From contig CAVOJQ010000012.1 in assembly GCA_963696275.1 (NCBI GenBank), positions 1,001,173 to 1,065,172 on the forward strand: DNA of 64,000 nucleotides, written 5' to 3'. Source of the stretch: an uncultured Acidobacteriaceae bacterium. Lineage in GTDB: Bacteria > Acidobacteriota > Terriglobia > Terriglobales > Acidobacteriaceae. The translations under genes were made by a program, and so were the position numbers. Position 1 is the first letter of the stretch. Each line of letters opens with the position of its first letter. The notes below the pieces were generated by a model, which saw nothing but the letters and a program-made list of their open reading frames with translations, was not told where the DNA came from and did not search any database. Below, piece by piece: positions 4,206 to 35,301 of this stretch.

Positions 4206-7200
4206 ATGCGACCCACTGTGAACCAAAAAAAGTTGTGGATTCTCCTCGCCGCGCTCTGCCTTCTGCCCGTGGCGCTCCCTGCCCAGCCCTACGACCCGTC
4301 TCTATTCCAGGACTTGCGCTGGCGCCTCATCGGCCCCTTTCGCGCCGGACGCACCGTTGCCATCTCCGGCGTCCCCGCACAACCCAACGTCTTCTACATG
4401 GCCCCCAACAACGGCGGCGTCTGGAAGACAACCGATTACGGCCGCACCTGGAACCCCATCTTCGACGATCAGCCGGATGACCCCCAGCATTCCGGATCCA
4501 TCGGCGCTCTCGCCGTTGCGCCCTCCAATCCCGCCATCGTCTACGTCGGCAGCGGAGAAGGCCTCCGCCGTCCCGACCTCTCGGTCGGCGACGGGATGTA
4601 CAAATCCACCGATGCCGGCCTCACCTGGCAGCACCTCGGCCTCCGCGATGCCCAGCAGATCGCCTCCATCATCGTCGATCCCAAAGATCCCAACCGCCTC
4701 TTCGTCGCCGTCCAGGGTCATCCTTACGGACCGAGCTCCGAGCGCGGCGTCTACCGCTCCCTCGACGGCGGTCAGACTTTCCAGAAAGTTCTCTACCACG
4801 ACGAAAACGCCGGCGGCATGGATCTCGTCTTCGATCCCCGCAACTCCCAAATCATCTTCGCCAGCCTCTGGTCCTCGCGCCGTCCCCCCTGGACCGCCGG
4901 TCTCGGCCTCTATGGCCCCGGCAGCGGTCTCTATAAATCCACCGATGGCGGCAATACCTGGCACCAGCTCACTAAAGGCTTGCCCGGCGAATCCGACGGA
5001 ATCGGCCGCATCGGACCCGCTGTTTCCCCGAGCGATCCCGATCGCATGTATGCCTGGGTTAACTCGAAAAAAGGCAGCGGCATCTACCGCTCCGACGATG
5101 CCGGCGAAAGCTGGCAGATAGTCAATAACGAAGAACGCATCTACGGTCGCGGCGATGACTTCGGCTGCGTCCGCGTCGATCCCGGAAACAAAGATGTGAT
5201 CTACGTCGCCAACACTTCCACCTACAAGTCCACCGACGCCGGCAAGAACTTTACCGCCATCAAAGGCGCCCCCGGAGGCGATGACTACCACACCATCTGG
5301 ATCAATCCCGAAAACCCCGACATCATCGCCCTCGCCGTCGATCAGGGAGCCACCATCACCGTCAACGGCGGCCAGACCTGGAGCTCCTGGTACAACCAGC
5401 CCACCGCCCAGTTCTATCACGTCATCACCGACAACCAGTTTCCCTACTGGGTCTACGGCGGCCAGCAGGAGAGCGGTTCCATCGGCACCGCCAGCCGCAG
5501 CGACTTCGGCGAAATCACCTTTCGCGACTGGACCACCGTTGGCGTCGAGGAATACGGCTACGTCGCCCCCGATCCTTTGCATCCCAATCTGATCTACGGC
5601 GGCAAAGCGACCGTGTTCGATCGCAATACCGGACAGACCCGCGACGTCTCTCCCGTCGTCCTCCGCACCGGACAGTATCGCTTCAATCGCACTGCGCCCC
5701 TCATCTTCTCCCCCGCCGATGCCCACGTCCTCTTCCTCGCGTCGAACGTCCTCTTCAAAACCACCGACGGCGGCAACAGTTGGCAGGTCATCAGCCCCGA
5801 CCTCACCCGCGAAGATCCCGGCGTTCCCCCGACTCTCGGCCCGTTCGTCGCCGCCGACCCGGCGAAAGGCAAGCATCGCGGCGTGATCTATTCGCTCGCT
5901 CCCTCGCCCAGAGACGCCAACCTGATCTGGGCCGGAACCGACGATGGCCTCATCCAGGTCACCCGCGACGGCGGCAAAAATTGGGAGAACGTGACTCCGC
6001 CAGAACTGACTCCCTGGAGCAAACTCGCCCAGATGGACGCGTCCCACTTCGATACCGCAACTGTCTACGCCGCCGTCAATCGTTTCCGCCTCGACGACCT
6101 GCATCCTTATATCTACCGCACCCACGATGGCGGCAAAACCTGGCAGAAGATCGTCACCGGCCTGCCCGAGAACGAACCCGTCAACGCCGTTCGCGAAGAT
6201 CCCGGCCGCCCAAAAATGCTCTTCGCCGGAACCGAACGCACCGTCTACGTTTCCTGGGACGACGGCGACCACTGGCAATCCCTGCAGCAGAACCTCCCGC
6301 CCACCTCGATCCGCGACCTCGTCATTCATAAAGACGACATCGTCGTCGGCACCCACGGTCGTTCCTTCTGGATCCTCGACAACATCAGCCCGCTCCGCCA
6401 ACTCCGGCCTGAGGTCGCAGCCCGTCCGGCGTTTCTCTTCGCTCCCGCATCGGCCTATCGCATCCGCCGCAACAACAACACCGATACCCCTCTTCCTCCC
6501 GAAGAGCCCGCCGGACAGAATCCTCCTGACGGCGCCATGATCGATTACTGGATCAGCCCCAACATCATTGACACGCCCGTCACTCTCGAAATCTTCGATA
6601 GCACCGGCAACCACCTCATCCGCCACTTTTCGACCCTTGACCAACCCGAGCCCGTGAATCCAAAACAGCTCAACGTCCCGATGTATTGGGTGCGTCCCTC
6701 GCGAACCTTGTCGGCCGCCCCGGGTATGCATCGCTTCGTTTGGGATATGACTTATCCCCCGCCCGATGTTCTCGAGCACGAATACCCCATCTCAGCCATC
6801 TACCTCGACACGCCGCGCTATCCGCTCGGAGCCACCGTCGTCCCTGGGACCTACAAGCTGGTTCTCACCGCCGGACGCCAGAACTATATCCAAACCCTCG
6901 CCATCCGAATGGATCCGCGTGTCAAGGTTTCTTCCAGTGACTTGGACCGTCATCTCGACCTCGACCGCAAAATCGCCGACGCTCTCCATCGCGACTACGA
7001 AGCCCTGCAACAGGTCCGCAGCCTGCGCGCCCAATTGAAGTCCCTCAAGACCGACGCGCACGCCAGCAGCGCCGCCAGCCACTCGGCGATGGCCGCGATC
7101 GCCAAAGCAGCCGCCGTCCTCGACGCGAAAGCCGCCGCCATCGAAGGCGAAGAAGGCGGATACGGCGCCAGCTACCTGAGCACTCCCGCCGGCCGCACCC

Positions 7201-30811: not shown

Positions 30812-31927
30812 TCAGGCGGGTACGGCGATCGGGCGAATCTGAATCAAGGGGACATTGCCTGAGGTACTGCGGGGTTTCGAGAGCCCCTGCTGCAGCATAT
30901 TCGCCGTCGGAATTCCCGTCCGGTAGAAGGATTTTTCGCAATCCGCGGAGGACGGGCCGCGCATGCTTCCTTCCATGTACGCCAATCCAGGGCAGCGCGA
31001 GCAACTGCTGACATGCGAGCAGGACGAACAGACGGTCAGATCTTTGGCCTGGATAGAGCGCACTTCCTTGAACTGCGGCGAATAATTCCAGATATCCAGG
31101 AACTTCTGCTGACGAATGTTTCCCGTGGGAAGCGGGAACTGCACGCAGGGAAAAACATCGCCGTAGGGCGATATGTAGCAGAAGGAATGGCCCGCGCTGC
31201 ACGAATAACCTTCGAGATCCTCTTCCGAGACCGGCTTGGGAGGCGCGCAGAACTCCTCCTGATTGCCGACCAGCGCCGGATTATGAAAAATCTCCGTCAG
31301 TTCCTCGCCCGGAATCCGCAGGGAGAGGATCGACGTGTCGCCATCCATCATCGGTGTGATGGTCGGATCGAGCGTGTAATGCGCGTCGAGCTCGGCGGCC
31401 AGTTTTTGCACGCCGGCATGGTCGGAGGAATTCCCGGTCATCAGCACGTTGGCGATGGTGACGCGAACCCCCCGCTCCCGCAGGAAACGGATGGCCTTGA
31501 CCGTGCGCTCGAAGGAGTGCGGCAGCTTGGTGATCGCGTCATGCACTTCGGGACGATGCGAGTAGACGCTGATCTGGATGGTGTCGACGGAGAGGTCGCG
31601 AATTCTTCGCGCCTCTTCTTCGTGGATCATCACCGCGTTGGTCTTGATCTTGACGTTGAACATCAGGCGGCGGGCGTGTTCGACAATCTCAAAAAAATCG
31701 CGACGCAGAAAAACCTCGCCGCCGCTGAGCGTAAGAAAAAAGACGCCGGCATCGGCCAGTTGATCGAGCACATCCTTGATCTCGGCGGTGGTCATTTCGC
31801 CGTGATCGTCATGATCGAGATAGCAATGAATGCAGCGCTCGTTGCAGCGAAACGTGACATCCATGTGGACGGCGAGCGGCACTCCCAGGTTGAATGCCTT
31901 CTGCCCAATGTCGGTCATCAGGCTCAT
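30812..31927 (-). CDS. radical SAM / SPASM-domain peptide-modifying enzyme
   Basis: 'VTFRCNERCIHCY' (CX3CX2C), 'LTLSGGEVFLR', C-terminal Cys clusters 'CSAGHSFCYISPYGDVFPCVQ' and 'CSSCSHVSSCSRCPG'. ATGA overlap with the upstream PqqD-like gene. Confidence 0.85.
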   Translation of the reverse strand: MSLMTDIGQKAFNLGVPLAVHMDVTFRCNERCIHCYLDHDDHGEMTTAEIKDVLDQLADAGVFFLTLSGGEVFLRRDFFEIVEHARRLMFNVKIKTNAVMIHEEEARRIRDLSVDTIQISVYSHRPEVHDAITKLPHSFERTVKAIRFLRERGVRVTIANVLMTGNSSDHAGVQKLAAELDAHYTLDPTITPMMDGDTSILSLRIPGEELTEIFHNPALVGNQEEFCAPPKPVSEEDLEGYSCSAGHSFCYISPYGDVFPCVQFPLPTGNIRQQKFLDIWNYSPQFKEVRSIQAKDLTVCSSCSHVSSCSRCPGLAYMEGSMRGPSSADCEKSFYRTGIPTANMLQQGLSKPRSTSGNVPLIQIRPIAVPA

Positions 31928-32244
31928 CGGGACGCCTGCTGAGAAGTCTCTGCTGGCAGCGGCCGATCGGAAACGCGAAGAATTCCGTGGGCCGAGAGTT
32001 CGGTGACAAATTGCTCGGCATCGGCCTGAGCCTGTTCGGGATCGACCTCAAATTGTTCGCAAATACGGTCGCGAACTATGTCCCGCAGCGGAGTGCAGCC
32101 GTCGGCCGCCTGAAAAATCGCGGTTGCGACTTCGTTCAGGGTGAAGAAGGTCGAATCGGCGGAATTCATTACCATCATCTCGCCCGCCAGCGCCCGCGCC
32201 GCAATGGCCGAACTGCGCGCGATGTAAATGCTATTTTCAGGCAT
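31924..32244 (-). CDS. PqqD-family protein (RiPP recognition element-like)
   Basis: 'FFTLNEVATAIFQAADGCTPLRDIVRDRICEQFEVDPEQAQADAEQFVTELSAHGILRV'. The start at 32244 overlaps the upstream stop (ATGCCTGA). Confidence 0.75.
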   Translation of the reverse strand: MPENSIYIARSSAIAARALAGEMMVMNSADSTFFTLNEVATAIFQAADGCTPLRDIVRDRICEQFEVDPEQAQADAEQFVTELSAHGILRVSDRPLPAETSQQASR

Positions 32245-33130
32245 GCTCCGGCACCCCCTCGACGTTGCTGAAGGAATTGCGGTTCGAGTTCGGTTCGAAA
32301 TGACCGTCGAATTTACGCACTTCGTCCCACACCCTGGCATCAGGATAGAACGTCAGGCGGCGAATGGGAACCGTGTCCACAAAATCGCACGCAACCGCAA
32401 ATAGTTTTTCCACCAGGCCGGGGTCCTCGGCGAAGAACAGAATATTGCGCATGAGGCGGCGGACAGCCTCCGTGGAGGACAATTCGTCAACCTGGTTTGC
32501 CGGACCTTTTTCCAGAAAGAAAAGAGCTGCGACCGGAGCGCTGCAGTTTTCCCCGGGGCGGGCGAGCTCTCCCGCAAAGGGAGTGCCGAACGCGGAATAG
32601 CCGCCGGCTTTCGGCCGGAGGTAGGAAATTTCGTCGGTCAGCAGGGTGATGTCGGGCGGCGCGAGTCTCGTCATGGTGGTTTTTCCGGCGCCCGATACTC
32701 CAGAGAATAAATAAGCGCGCCCGTCGCAAATCGCGCTCGCCGCGTGCAGCAGAAAGCCGCCGCGTTCGGCAAGTATGAGGCTGTGAAGAATCCGCATCAC
32801 GGAATCAAGAGAATAGGGATTGGAATTCTGCCGCACCTGCCCTCGTCCGGTATGCGGATCCCAGCGGGCGTGGAAGTCGCCGCGCTCCAGGATCCACGCC
32901 CCCACATCATTCTTATCATTGTCATTCTTGTTGTGGTGGACGCGAACGTCGTCATCCGAACCCGGGCCCGGCGCCGTGAGATCGAATTCGAGTTCAAATT
33001 CCGGGCGTGAAGAACTGAGGAATCCGTCGTAACGCTGCCGCAGTAGCTCAAGAAAGCTGTCGCTCGTGGTGGAGAGCGCGATCGGAATGCCTCCGATCTC
33101 GACACAAGCGGTTTTTTGCGGCGCCGTCAT
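32237..33130 (-). CDS. HPr-kinase-related P-loop protein (putative peptide kinase)
   Basis: 'LHAASAICDGRAYLFSGVSGAGKTTMTRL' resembles the HprK/P C-terminal P-loop region and the HprK-like kinases of RiPP clusters. The start could instead be 33175. Confidence 0.65.
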   Translation of the reverse strand: MTAPQKTACVEIGGIPIALSTTSDSFLELLRQRYDGFLSSSRPEFELEFDLTAPGPGSDDDVRVHHNKNDNDKNDVGAWILERGDFHARWDPHTGRGQVRQNSNPYSLDSVMRILHSLILAERGGFLLHAASAICDGRAYLFSGVSGAGKTTMTRLAPPDITLLTDEISYLRPKAGGYSAFGTPFAGELARPGENCSAPVAALFFLEKGPANQVDELSSTEAVRRLMRNILFFAEDPGLVEKLFAVACDFVDTVPIRRLTFYPDARVWDEVRKFDGHFEPNSNRNSFSNVEGVPEHA

Positions 33131-33144
33131 GGTGAGAATTCCAC

Positions 33145-33663
33145 CTACCAGGATTCCAGACTTCGAAATTCGCACGCCGATGAGCTACGGCGGTTATGAA
33201 GTTTCAGCGCGAGCCGCCGCGCCAGGCTCCAGTGGCAGAGCAGTGCACCCACCGCTCGAAACCATAGCGAGGCCGTGAAGGCTCGGCGCCGGCGCGCATT
33301 CGGAACCAGGCGGCCGAGCAACGCCTCGGTAGGGTACTCAGGGTCGGCTGAACGGACGCAATCGCCACGCAGTAGAAATCCGCCGGGTGCGCAGGTTCCG
33401 ACCAGTCGATGCAGCACGAGGCGGTCGTCGCGAAGCGCCAACACGATCTCGCCCGGACGGATTTCATCGACCGGGCAGCTTTCGATTTCGACTTCATCGC
33501 CCGGCCAGAGAGCGGGCAGCATACTTTCCCCGTGAATTTGCCCGCGCACGCGCAAGGACTTTCCCGAAGGCGGGTGAACCGCGCCGCGCAAAACGTCCGC
33601 CACCAGGGCGGCACGAACTGCGCTCCAACGCGAATTCTGCGGGGGCGCTGTGTCGAGCGGCAT
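33145..33663 (-). CDS. S24/S26-fold serine peptidase, Sec11/SipW-like (Ser/His) type, with C-terminal TM
   Basis: 'GESMLPALWPGDEVEIES', 'IRPGEIVLAL', 'LVLHRLVG', 'LLRGDCVRSADPEY'. I place the start at ATG 33663 because third-position GC drops sharply upstream in this frame. Confidence 0.65.
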   Translation of the reverse strand: MPLDTAPPQNSRWSAVRAALVADVLRGAVHPPSGKSLRVRGQIHGESMLPALWPGDEVEIESCPVDEIRPGEIVLALRDDRLVLHRLVGTCAPGGFLLRGDCVRSADPEYPTEALLGRLVPNARRRRAFTASLWFRAVGALLCHWSLARRLALKLHNRRSSSACEFRSLESW

Positions 33664-33842
33664 TAGGAAGTTTTTCCCGAGAACTGGCAATTCCCGATCG
33701 TGCTGGCGATCTTGCCGCACGATAGAGCCATCGTCTCGAAGACTCGTTCGTGACGGAAGGACGGTTTCTGGTATGGCTTCTTTCCCTTTACTGAAGTTCC
33801 GGGCTGGAGCTGCTTCTCGCTTGCGGTCCGATGATCCTTCAT
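33663..33842 (-). CDS. candidate RiPP precursor peptide (59 aa, not in ORF track)
   Basis: Hand translation gives MKDHRTASEKQLQPGTSVKGKKPYQKPSFRHERVFETMALSCGKIASTIGNCQFSGKTS. Its stop overlaps the peptidase start (TAATG). Third-position GC is about 67% in this frame versus about 48% in the frame of the listed 235-aa ORF. No clear SD. Confidence 0.4.
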   Translation of the reverse strand: MKDHRTASEKQLQPGTSVKGKKPYQKPSFRHERVFETMALSCGKIASTIGNCQFSGKTS

Positions 33843-33948
33843 AAGTGGTCAAGCCGTGTTAGATCGAGAACCGGCCTATTCCCCCAGTTTCGATAGAGAG
33901 TAACGGCAGTGTACTACAAGGCTTTCGCCCATGCCAGTAATGACCCGG

Positions 33949-33973
33949 CTGCAAACGCGGGCGGATTTTGCAG
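33949..33973 (-). other. hairpin between the ABC-2 permease gene and the candidate precursor ORF
   Basis: Minus strand 'CTGCAAA ATCCGCCCGCG TTTGCAG', a perfect 7-bp stem with no T-tract. Confidence 0.4.
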
Positions 33974-33984
33974 CGCAATAATCT

Positions 33985-34010
33985 GATGCGTTAATAAGAT
34001 GCGTTAATAA
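33985..34010. repeat. perfect 13-bp x2 tandem duplication spanning the ABC-2 permease stop codon
   Basis: Plus strand 'GATGCGTTAATAA GATGCGTTAATAA'. The stop (TTA on plus) is at 34004-34006. Confidence 0.9.
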
Positions 34011-34813
34011 GAAGAGAGGGTTCCATCCTGGCGGGCACGGCGAAGGCTGAGCGATAGGGCGGCGAGCGCCAGCGGCAACAGAACCACCGCAAACCCGGCC
34101 AGAGCCATGAGGGTTGGAAGCATCATCATCACCGATTGACCCTCCAGGAGCGCCCGGCGCATCCCATCAATCGAGTACGTGAGTGGAACGGCGCGCGCCA
34201 GAAGTTGCAGAGGGCGCGGTAAAGTCTGAATCGGAAACATCGTCCCACTGAGAAACCAGAGACCGGAACCGAGCAGCCAGAGCAACGCCGAGCCTTTCTG
34301 GAAGGCAACCTGAAGCGTGGCGGCCGCGATGCCCAGGGCGAGGGCGATGGCGAGAGAAAAGATCAATACAGCGAGGCAAGAGAATACATTGGCATGTACC
34401 GACGCCCGGAAGACGGCCACTCCCGCAAAAAGATAGATCAGGAGATTGACCAGGTTCCCCGCGAAGGCGGAAATAGAGCTGAGGATGATGAGTTCGGCCG
34501 GGGCGGTCGAGGTCGTCATGAGCACCTCCAGCGTCCCCGTCTGTTGCGCCTCCTGCACCGCGCTCAGGAAAGACTGGGCGCTCATGACGAAAAAGGTGTA
34601 CACCCCGGTGCCCACCAGAAGAAAAGGAAAATACTCGATGCCTCCCGGTCGAAAACCGGGACCGATGGCGCGGGAGAGGAAATAGAAAGCCGCCAATTCG
34701 GTGAACACTCCAACCAGGGTTACGACGAAGCCGCTGCGGTGGCGGATTGCCGTCAGCAGGTCGCGTCGCACGATGGCGCGGAGCTTGTCCAGGGTGGAAG
34801 TCACGCCTTCCAT
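34004..34813 (-). CDS. ABC-2 type transporter permease (no adjacent ATPase gene)
   Basis: Six TM helices. 'RRDLLTAIRHRSGFVVTLVGVFTELAAFYFL' is a typical ABC-2 N-terminus. Same strand as the RiPP-like operon. Confidence 0.75.
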   Translation of the reverse strand: MEGVTSTLDKLRAIVRRDLLTAIRHRSGFVVTLVGVFTELAAFYFLSRAIGPGFRPGGIEYFPFLLVGTGVYTFFVMSAQSFLSAVQEAQQTGTLEVLMTTSTAPAELIILSSISAFAGNLVNLLIYLFAGVAVFRASVHANVFSCLAVLIFSLAIALALGIAAATLQVAFQKGSALLWLLGSGLWFLSGTMFPIQTLPRPLQLLARAVPLTYSIDGMRRALLEGQSVMMMLPTLMALAGFAVVLLPLALAALSLSLRRARQDGTLSSY

Positions 34814-34893
34814 TTATAGTCTTCCGATCGTCAGGATGGCTCGGTCTTCGCGCAGCTTCCTTGACCACGACACTCTAACAGCATGTCTCAGAC

Positions 34894-34942
34894 TGAAGAC
34901 TCAAGATTGAAGATTGAAGATTGAAGACCGAAGACCGAAGAC
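34894..34942. repeat. heptamer x7 tandem array upstream of the ABC-2 permease gene
   Basis: 'TGAAGAC TCAAGAT TGAAGAT TGAAGAT TGAAGAC CGAAGAC CGAAGAC'. Confidence 0.85.
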
Positions 34943-35301
34943 ATTTGTGTGAGGCCCGTCGCAAATCAGCGCTGTTGCATTCTTCCGCTTACCCTGTTGT
35001 AAATTTCATCTCCGCCTCTTCGACCGCTAAGAGAATGATTCTAAGCCCTGACCGGCCGTGCGATTCTCTAAACCTGGCCAAAATGAGCCTTGCCCTGTTG
35101 CGAATTCTATCAACCCCAGCTTGACAACTTCCTCAGACCAGCCAGCCTCCTAACCGGGCCCATCGTCTAACTACACTGTTTCAAGGGACATTGCGCGCTG
35201 GTTCCGCGCAAGAAAACTTTGCGCCACTTTGGCCCGGCGATTGCCTTTAGTAAAAGTGTTGAGTGGCTCAGAAAGAAACGGCCCTCACCCCGAGGTGACT
35301 T

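Follow-up and report, generated by a model that had tools for sequence, protein, structure and literature searches.

What does a short open reading frame (ORF) encode when it lies unannotated between a putative peptidase gene and the gene of an ABC-2 transporter permease? The stretch of DNA that raises this question, called the window in what follows, comprises 64,000 nucleotides from an uncultured Acidobacteriaceae bacterium (assembly GCA_963696275.1, contig CAVOJQ010000012.1), and the ORF, of 59 codons on its minus strand, had been interpreted in a preliminary description as a precursor peptide. The ORF is a genuine gene: it is conserved, mostly without a name, under purifying selection and tightly linked to a cassette of modification genes. 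The cassette has five genes, with the ORF at its head; we consider it likely that the ORF is translated into the precursor peptide that serves the encoded enzymes as substrate, and that the cassette makes a ribosomally synthesised and post-translationally modified peptide (RiPP). The cassette is most likely a radical S-adenosylmethionine (rSAM) RiPP system dependent on a RiPP recognition element (RRE), with an unusual set of enzymes and an unusually conserved core, and it is widespread in Terriglobales of soil and peat.

Length alone says little at this G+C content, and the ORF is recognised as a gene because of its homologues, its profile clusters and its codon pattern. A search of 5.8 billion proteins returned 384 homologues (best E-value 2e-21), nearly all of 54-62 aa; few of them are named, and the name given is 'hypothetical protein'. 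Profile searching of 1.84 billion cluster representatives recovered 754 clusters, defined at 50% identity, with E <= 1e-3, 328 of them with E <= 1e-10. The codon test was carried out on 42 distinct orthologous genes, over 39 gap-free aligned codons. Entropy at the first, second and third codon positions is 0.46, 0.47 and 1.07, respectively, and the ratio of non-synonymous to synonymous polymorphism (pN/pS) is 0.30 in the peptide frame and 1.47 and 1.40 in the remaining two; these genes were chosen by protein motif, which lowers pN, but the synonymous excess in the peptide frame alone is still clear. The G+C content at third codon positions (GC3) points in the same direction, being 0.67 in the peptide frame, 0.47 in the frame of a 235-aa ORF that extends the peptidase across the region, and 0.64-0.74 in the genes nearby.

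The hand counts of GC3 in the preliminary description agree with these computed values, and its coordinates, strand and 59-aa translation (MKDHRT...SGKTS, starting at 33842) are exact. The same is true of the TAATG junction, where the TAA of the peptide gene (33665-33663) and the ATG of the peptidase gene (33663-33661) have one A in common. Two outcomes had been named in advance as speaking against the ORF, namely the absence of a conserved ORF in this frame from orthologous loci, or the conservation as protein of an N-terminal extension of the peptidase. Neither occurred: in the extended peptidase frame pN/pS across the peptide gene is 1.4-1.5, that is, no purifying selection. In hundreds of assemblies the peptide has a gene call of its own. 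The annotation of the source genome misses it, and its 59 aa are one residue under a 60-aa ORF cutoff. Over 6.5 kb the window is matched at 99.7% identity by a public locus (L086; GCA_052143395.1, contig JBKQTA010000174.1), and two further assemblies (L087 and L088) have the same gene order; all three contain the exact peptide sequence, yet no gene is called at its position. There is no second copy of the peptide in the window.

Conservation within the peptide family is unevenly distributed. Residues 2-20 vary in sequence and in length, while residues 21-44 are nearly fixed (KKPYQKPsFRHERVFETMALsCGK): Y24, P27, E32, F35, E36, A39, L40, C42, G43 and K44 are conserved in 100% of the sequences, as is C52 further on, T37 in 99%, and K21, K22, P23, K26, F29, R33 and V34 in at least 90%. 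Seven semi-variable residues, including T48 (90%), separate K44 from C52, and after C52 comes a tail of the type xFNRKxS, with K57 conserved in 88% and the C-terminal Ser in 99%; core positions 45-51 and 53-58 are variable. Among 266 family members, 262 have Ser as their last residue and 244 show the spacing C-x9-C-x7-end. The peptide is lysine-rich and hydrophilic in character, and against Pfam and NCBIfam it matches no family and no DNA-binding or other domain.

Conservation of Y24, P27, T37, the two Cys and the terminal Ser had been proposed beforehand as a check on the precursor reading; these positions turned out to be conserved in 99 to 100% of the sequences, the distance of ten residues between P27 and T37 is correct, and the same cassette adjoins the gene wherever the flank suffices. 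The interpretation as a precursor peptide is therefore supported both by residue conservation and by linkage to the cassette. The alternative 22-aa product starting at Met38, also suggested at that time, was rejected: the most constrained residues lie upstream of Met38, residues 21-37 being the most conserved part of the peptide, and position 38 is Met in 86% only. One family member of 93 aa (P0302) has an extra leader-like stretch, KKVYTLPELLIYGNLAQITS (YxxPxL...G...T), ahead of the normal peptide sequence; judged from its sequence, this stretch is reminiscent of lasso-type leaders and the protein may consist of two tandem precursors in one ORF.

The second line of evidence is the constancy of the neighbourhood. 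The operon runs in the order peptide, S24/S26-fold peptidase, ScmC-type P-loop protein, PqqD-family protein and rSAM/SPASM enzyme, with start/stop overlaps of 1, 8 and 4 nt, and an ABC-2 permease gene lies upstream; the boundaries of the PqqD gene are those called in L086-L088. In a peptide-anchored scan of metagenomes, which provided 57 loci with enough downstream sequence, the peptidase or the ScmC-type gene is directly downstream of the peptide in 56. Four long contigs (L001, L003, L004 and L005) have the cassette 3' of the peptide and otherwise different neighbours. A scan anchored on ScmC, with one genome per species, gave at least 391 candidate stretches, and the best 80 loci were kept. 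All of these 80 are from Acidobacteriota metagenome-assembled genomes, nearly all assigned to Terriglobales, Terriglobia, Acidobacteriaceae or Candidatus Sulfotelmatobacter. The peptide could be assessed in 79: a full-length gene in the same place and on the same strand was found in 57, atypical or disrupted copies in 5, and remnants or nothing in 17. Across species the rSAM enzyme is 85-90% identical, the ScmC-type protein 70-80% and the peptidase 45-60%.

The locus has the arrangement that defines the general class, i.e. a small ORF co-oriented with, and beside, a PqqD-type RRE and an rSAM/SPASM enzyme, in conserved linkage. In a predicted protein of 154 aa (P0378), taken from a representative library that gives no genomic context, residues 22-86 form a PqqD domain with 52% identity to the PqqD protein of the window and residues 111-154 a complete precursor peptide; the two may be genuinely fused, or their joining may be an artefact of gene calling. 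Two other arrangements were observed. In L084 (4683-4913) the precursor gene is upstream of the peptidase on the strand opposite to the cassette, in divergent orientation, and in the related loci L004 (1392-1694) and L005 (1374-1676) a second PqqD-family gene stands alone, some 8.5 kb upstream of the cassette. The features of the locus are collected in Table 1.

Table 1. Features of the candidate precursor locus, in window coordinates, and related loci without the peptide gene.
Feature	Position	Strand	Basis
Candidate precursor peptide gene, 59 aa, MKDHRTASEKQLQPGTSVKGKKPYQKPSFRHERVFETMALSCGKIASTIGNCQFSGKTS	33663..33842	minus	ORF translation, homologues, codon pattern
Conserved segment K21-A39 of the putative leader, KKPYQKPSFRHERVFETMA, with Y24-x-x-P27-x-F29	33726..33782	minus	per-column conservation
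Putative core L40-S59, LSCGKIASTIGNCQFSGKTS	33666..33725	minus	conserved residues; boundary inferred
S24/S26-fold peptidase, 172 aa, putative leader peptidase	33145..33663	minus	weak family matches, invariant motifs, AlphaFold2 model
ScmC-type P-loop protein, 297 aa, putative peptide kinase	32237..33130	minus	PF27840, weak HprK-type matches
PqqD-family protein, 106 aa, putative RRE	31924..32244	minus	Pfam PqqD, E 8e-15
rSAM/SPASM enzyme, 371 aa	30812..31927	minus	Pfam Radical_SAM and SPASM
ABC-2 type transporter permease, 269 aa, probable exporter subunit	34004..34813	minus	Pfam ABC2_membrane
Conserved non-coding block	33843..33936	minus	alignments of orthologous upstream regions
Peptide-less loci L006, L008, L011, L015, L016, L017, L021, L023, L030, L031, L033, L038, L047, L050, L051, L069, L080	site ~5150-5450 in most of the 17		

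The rSAM enzyme has the CxxxCxxC motif (C28/C32/C35) and a full, Cys-rich SPASM domain, while an RRE domain is lacking at its N-terminus. Among solved structures the closest are the peptide-modifying enzymes SkfB (E 4e-15), SuiB, PqqE and CteB (9e-5), and the enzyme scores under the cutoff for every NCBIfam rSAM family, sactipeptide maturases included. The best NCBIfam matches of the PqqD protein are lasso-peptide B1 chaperones, all sub-threshold.

The P-loop protein is assigned to ScmC by Pfam PF27840, which the precomputed annotation places on all its homologues; ScmC is also its best NCBIfam match (TIGR04249, E 3e-12), below the cutoff. The preliminary description had called this gene HprK-like. 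The resemblance is weak: the NCBIfam models HprK_rel_A/B match at E ~1e-3, the phosphoenolpyruvate carboxykinase (PEPCK) P-loop region (Pfam PEPCK_ATP) matches weakly in 27 of 27 ScmC homologues, at E up to 10, and Pfam Hpr_kinase_C matched 0 of the 27 at the same threshold. A sequence search of the PDB gave a PEPCK P-loop match alone (E 0.17-0.31). The invariant H129, G-x-S-G-A-G-K-T-T and D166-E167 are arranged much as in HPr kinase, and from sequence the label 'kinase' is reasonable but unproven.

The peptidase, to which a 99% identical protein lends the name 'S24/S26 family peptidase [Terriglobales bacterium]', has weak matches to Pfam Peptidase_S24, to the NCBIfam archaeal-type signal peptidase I (TIGR02228, score 23 against a cutoff of 52) and to the maturation protease family of nickel superoxide dismutase (Ni-SOD; SodX). 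Its invariant motifs are G-x-S-M-L-P, H-R and G-D-x5-D, with S48, H86, D102 and D108 as invariant residues in the numbering of the conservation analysis, and the catalytic residues are probably Ser-His(-Asp). The His in place of the usual Lys and the spacing of the Asp residues recall what we take to be the Ser-His-Asp-Asp arrangement of Sec11 and of the signal peptidases of endoplasmic reticulum and archaeal type. The AlphaFold2 model has a mean predicted local distance difference test (pLDDT) score of 75, and its core aligns weakly in Foldseek with LexA, SpsB, human SEC11 and SipA (E 1.5e-3 to 2e-2, query TM-score about 0.4), while a PDB search with the sequence gave no match. The sequence shows no obvious membrane anchor. 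With pN/pS of about 0.4, the peptidase is the fastest-evolving gene of the cassette.

Most related loci have the ABC-2 permease gene immediately upstream of the cassette, and an ABC ATPase gene precedes it in 72 of the 80. The 490-nt gap upstream of the permease gene in the window (34814-35300) contains, at about 34905-34950, a short imperfect tandem repeat of cttcggt / cttcaat units.

From these elements we infer a sequence of chemical steps comprising docking, crosslinking, phosphorylation and cleavage. The leader would consist of the variable N-terminus and the segment K21-A39, and the stand-alone PqqD protein would bind the Y-x-x-P-x-F motif in the way known from lasso-peptide leaders, for which B1 proteins have nanomolar affinity (PMC5067487). 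PqqD would then present the core to the rSAM/SPASM enzyme, which may introduce one or more intramolecular crosslinks at C42 and C52, with T48, as in Cys-Thr ranthipeptides, or K44 as possible partners. In Firmicutes and Proteobacteria, linear lasso precursors receive a phosphate on their C-terminal Ser from HPr-kinase homologues (review, PMC8498205), and the ScmC-type protein may act likewise on the terminal Ser of the peptide; both thioether formation and Ser phosphorylation are proposed by analogy. The leader would be removed by the Ser-His peptidase, presumably as a soluble enzyme, near T37-M38-A39|L40. A cut between A39 and L40 is favoured because T37 and A39 fit the small-residue rule at -3/-1, and a cut after residue 41 is disfavoured because some members have Ile, Asn, Arg or Gln there. 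The ABC-2 system encoded upstream could export the product.

Several observations weigh against this interpretation. No GGAGG-like Shine-Dalgarno (SD) sequence is found within 20 nt 5' of the peptide ATG, as the preliminary description had already remarked, and none is seen in the aligned upstream regions of any orthologue. The core is far more conserved than that of typical antibiotic RiPPs. The P-loop protein shows weak homology to HPr kinase; its AlphaFold2 model is unusable (pLDDT 45.6, below 50 in the P-loop domain), and the available homologues are all 74-85% identical. The peptidase is absent from at least two cassette lineages: in L141 (501-1522), L142 (2638-3659) and L159 (102-1236) the peptide is followed directly by ScmC. 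An ABC ATPase gene has no match anywhere in the window, and none is called upstream of the permease in L086-L088.

A further objection comes from the loss of the peptide gene itself, which in 17 of the 79 loci is deleted or reduced to a remnant next to intact peptidase, ScmC, PqqD, rSAM and ABC-2 genes. Parsimony on the tree of rSAM and ScmC requires about 7-8 independent losses. The traces left are of different kinds: L006 and L023 retain 'VFRNLALSCGK' and L050 and L080 the start 'MMKDN', in each case joined to the peptidase, and L015 retains 'CQFSHKTS*'; in L008 and L011 no peptide remnant is recognisable. In the peptide-less clades the enzymes are under purifying selection as elsewhere (pN/pS 0.06-0.13 for rSAM, 0.16-0.23 for ScmC), and as a consequence they do not depend on a copy of the peptide encoded in cis. 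These cassettes either use a precursor supplied in trans or have another substrate for their enzymes. The former is plausible because an orphan precursor gene, away from any cassette, does exist: L099 (4001-4180) encodes a peptide 64% identical to that of the window, with no cassette within the locus. Its neighbours are a glycosyltransferase-4-like gene and a STAS-like gene, and a remnant resembling the 5' end of the peptidase gene follows it. L099 comes from metagenome Ga0074044, which is also the source of a contig (L089) with the exact window peptide.

The strong conservation raises a different explanation, in which the gene encodes the precursor of a conserved physiological molecule (a cofactor, a metal-binding peptide or a signal) comparable to pyrroloquinoline quinone (PQQ) or mycofactocin, and not of a variable antibiotic. 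In those two systems a discrete PqqD-type chaperone acts together with an rSAM/SPASM enzyme on a small conserved peptide. Here, leader removal would expose a Cys-containing end, which together with the second Cys could bind metal. CGK, C52 and the terminal Ser are unusually conserved across the 754 clusters, and the identities of the rSAM and ScmC proteins given above hold across hundreds of species; the cassette occurs in at least 391 one-per-species stretches, with all of the 80 best loci in Acidobacteriota and nearly all in Terriglobales, Terriglobia or Acidobacteriaceae. Mycofactocin and PQQ maturases are among the top-scoring rSAM families, and the weak match of the peptidase to the Ni-SOD maturation protease family would fit as well. 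On the other hand, the ABC-2 exporter present in most cassettes suggests an extracellular product, the operon has no genes resembling PqqB/C or MftD/E/F, the cofactor-family hidden Markov models all score far under their cutoffs, the precursor gene has been lost repeatedly, and core positions 45-51 and 53-58 vary. On balance we regard such an origin as unlikely. A related reading, which we put forward tentatively and to which we would give only a small chance, is a modified peptide of a kind not known before, with a conserved physiological role (signalling, metal or cofactor) in Terriglobales, carrying rSAM crosslinks on its CGK...T...C core and a phospho-Ser at the C-terminus. Its pathway would be a mosaic, in which leader recognition and the kinase are those of lasso systems, the leader is cut off by a Ser-His peptidase similar to Sec11, and an rSAM enzyme takes the place of the lasso cyclase. 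With a precursor able to function in trans, the survival of the enzymes where the local precursor gene has repeatedly been lost would be accounted for.

The same losses could be read in another way. If the small protein were an accessory factor (a regulator, a chaperone or an immunity factor), the substrate of the enzymes would be encoded elsewhere and be a different peptide or no peptide at all, and their purifying selection in clades without an adjacent peptide gene would follow naturally; the lysine-rich, hydrophilic sequence, conserved over most of its length and not hypervariable, is compatible with this role. An accessory protein would hardly be expected to have a strict C-terminal Ser and a fixed Cys spacing at its end, a lasso-leader-like YxxPxF motif beside a PqqD gene, or a PqqD-peptide fusion such as P0378; no DNA-binding or other domain was detected in it, and the peptide-less cassettes can be accounted for by a trans-encoded precursor, of which the orphan copy in L099 is an example. 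We consider this role improbable. Finally, that the ORF is untranslated, being a 5' extension of the peptidase (as the 235-aa ORF from TTG 33852) or a non-coding regulatory element, is hardly credible, because the missing SD and a peptidase frame that happens to stay free of stops in the window, as it does in 69 of 126 loci, are contradicted by the pN/pS and GC3 values of the two frames, by stops that close the peptidase frame in 57 of the 126 (in 17 the relative frame differs), and by gene calls that recognise the peptide in its own right and place the start of the annotated peptidases 3' of the peptide stop. The precursor peptide of an RRE-dependent rSAM system is the interpretation that we retain.

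The region upstream of the peptide ATG is itself conserved. In orthologues the block consists, in order, of TGGCAC-N5-GAAAGCC, TGTAGTACACTGCC, TTTACTCTTATC, GGGGGATA, a 7-bp hairpin and GACCAACT-ATG, and it includes the palindrome TGTAGTACA. The corresponding parts in the window are TGGCAT (33936-33931), TGTAGTACACTGCC (33918-33905), GGGGG (33885-33881) and a hairpin of 6-7 bp in which 33877-33872 pairs with 33856-33851. The stem, drawn and counted by hand, is paired in 94% across 62 sequences, with compensatory changes in four of its seven pairs; RNAalifold did not recover it from the upstream alignment because the loop lengths differ, and its stability in the window is unremarkable (z -0.5). 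An Rfam scan of 33600-34100 at a permissive threshold gave no match, no sigma-70 consensus or intrinsic terminator was found in a scan of 33400-34200, and apart from the single upstream site there are no further copies of TGTAGTACACTGCC in the window beyond chance. A sigma-54 reading of TGGCAC-N5-GAAAGC was not adopted, the GG-to-GC spacing being one base over what we take to be the canonical spacing. The block may combine a promoter with an unusual translation-initiation region.

Terriglobales belong to the most abundant bacteria of acidic soils and peat, and to the most active in transcription; new rSAM-RiPP families turn up regularly. In a peatland study clusters of the 'RRE-containing' and 'ranthipeptide' classes are abundant and Acidobacteriota express most of the expressed clusters; RiPP clusters of Terriglobales have so far been counted under these generic classes only (PMC13642348). 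None of Pfam, NCBIfam and Rfam has a model for the peptide family described here, and the literature searched yielded no paper on it. A concrete and very widespread precursor family, with 754 clusters at 50% identity, is now tied to one cassette, and the ScmC family, for whose P-loop proteins we know of no substrate, gains a likely substrate type. The chemistry of the cassette becomes directly testable, with a 59-aa substrate, four enzymes and predictions on mass shifts, phospho-Ser, the cleavage site and the role of Y24 and P27. The family is of moderate to high interest, since it occurs very widely in a group that dominates ecologically and has been little studied.

How does the cassette compare with known systems? 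The first comparison is with phosphorylated lasso peptides of the paeninodin type, which are encoded by a precursor (A), a PqqD-like B1 protein, a B2 protease, a cyclase (C), an HPr-kinase homologue (K) and an ABC exporter (D). Here too there is a stand-alone PqqD protein, a leader with Y-x-x-P-x-hydrophobic and, further on, a conserved Thr, an invariant Ser at the end of the precursor, beside a P-loop protein putatively of HprK/PEPCK type (with weak homology in this case), and an ABC exporter. Unlike lasso systems, the loci examined have neither a cyclase nor a B2 protease of transglutaminase type and contain an rSAM/SPASM enzyme and an S24/S26-fold peptidase instead; the Thr is 10 residues after the Pro, compared with 12 in lasso leaders, and no Asp or Glu that could form a macrolactam is conserved after A39, while lasso cores begin with Gly, Ala, Ser or Cys and have such an acidic residue at position 7-9. 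The peptide was for these reasons not assigned to the lasso class.

The SynChlorMet (SCM) cassette, composed of ScmC, the PqqD-like ScmD and the rSAM/SPASM proteins ScmE and ScmF, likewise unites an ScmC-type, a PqqD-like and an rSAM/SPASM protein in one operon. It differs in having two rSAM genes where the present cassette has one, in lacking the S24/S26 peptidase and the ABC-2 exporter added here, and in its taxon, which is Terriglobales in our case; the present cassette also has a clear precursor gene, while to our knowledge the SCM precursor has not been identified. The assignment to SCM (TIGR04248-04251) was rejected on the single rSAM gene and on scores that are far under the equivalog cutoff for ScmC (46.4 against 125), ScmD (24.6 against 100), ScmE (103.6 against 400) and ScmF (62 against 400).

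With PQQ, mycofactocin, sactipeptides (SkfA/SkfB) and ranthipeptides (thermocellin/CteB) the cassette has in common a small precursor, an RRE and an rSAM/SPASM enzyme with auxiliary clusters, and, as in sactipeptides and ranthipeptides, there are conserved Cys residues in the core, two invariant ones here together with a 90% conserved Thr. In contrast to all of these it includes a P-loop protein and a signal-peptidase-like protease, and its precursor matches no known precursor family. PQQ and mycofactocin were discarded as class assignments, since the enzyme scores 107 for PqqE (cutoff 381) and 134 for MftC (cutoff 265), the peptide matches no family and the accessory genes are absent from the operon.

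The peptidase, for its part, resembles the S26B signal peptidases and S26 maturation proteases (Sec11, SipW, SodX) in its predicted S24/S26 fold, in G-x-S-M-x-P, in the His replacing Lys and in G-D-x5-D. It differs from them in having no obvious membrane anchor, in scores below the family cutoffs, in its location in an operon with a cytoplasmic peptide-modification system, in its fast evolution and in being missing from some cassettes. As far as can be judged from its genes, the cassette would work most like a hybrid, in which elements of the phosphorylated lasso-peptide systems are joined to peptide maturation by an rSAM/SPASM enzyme.

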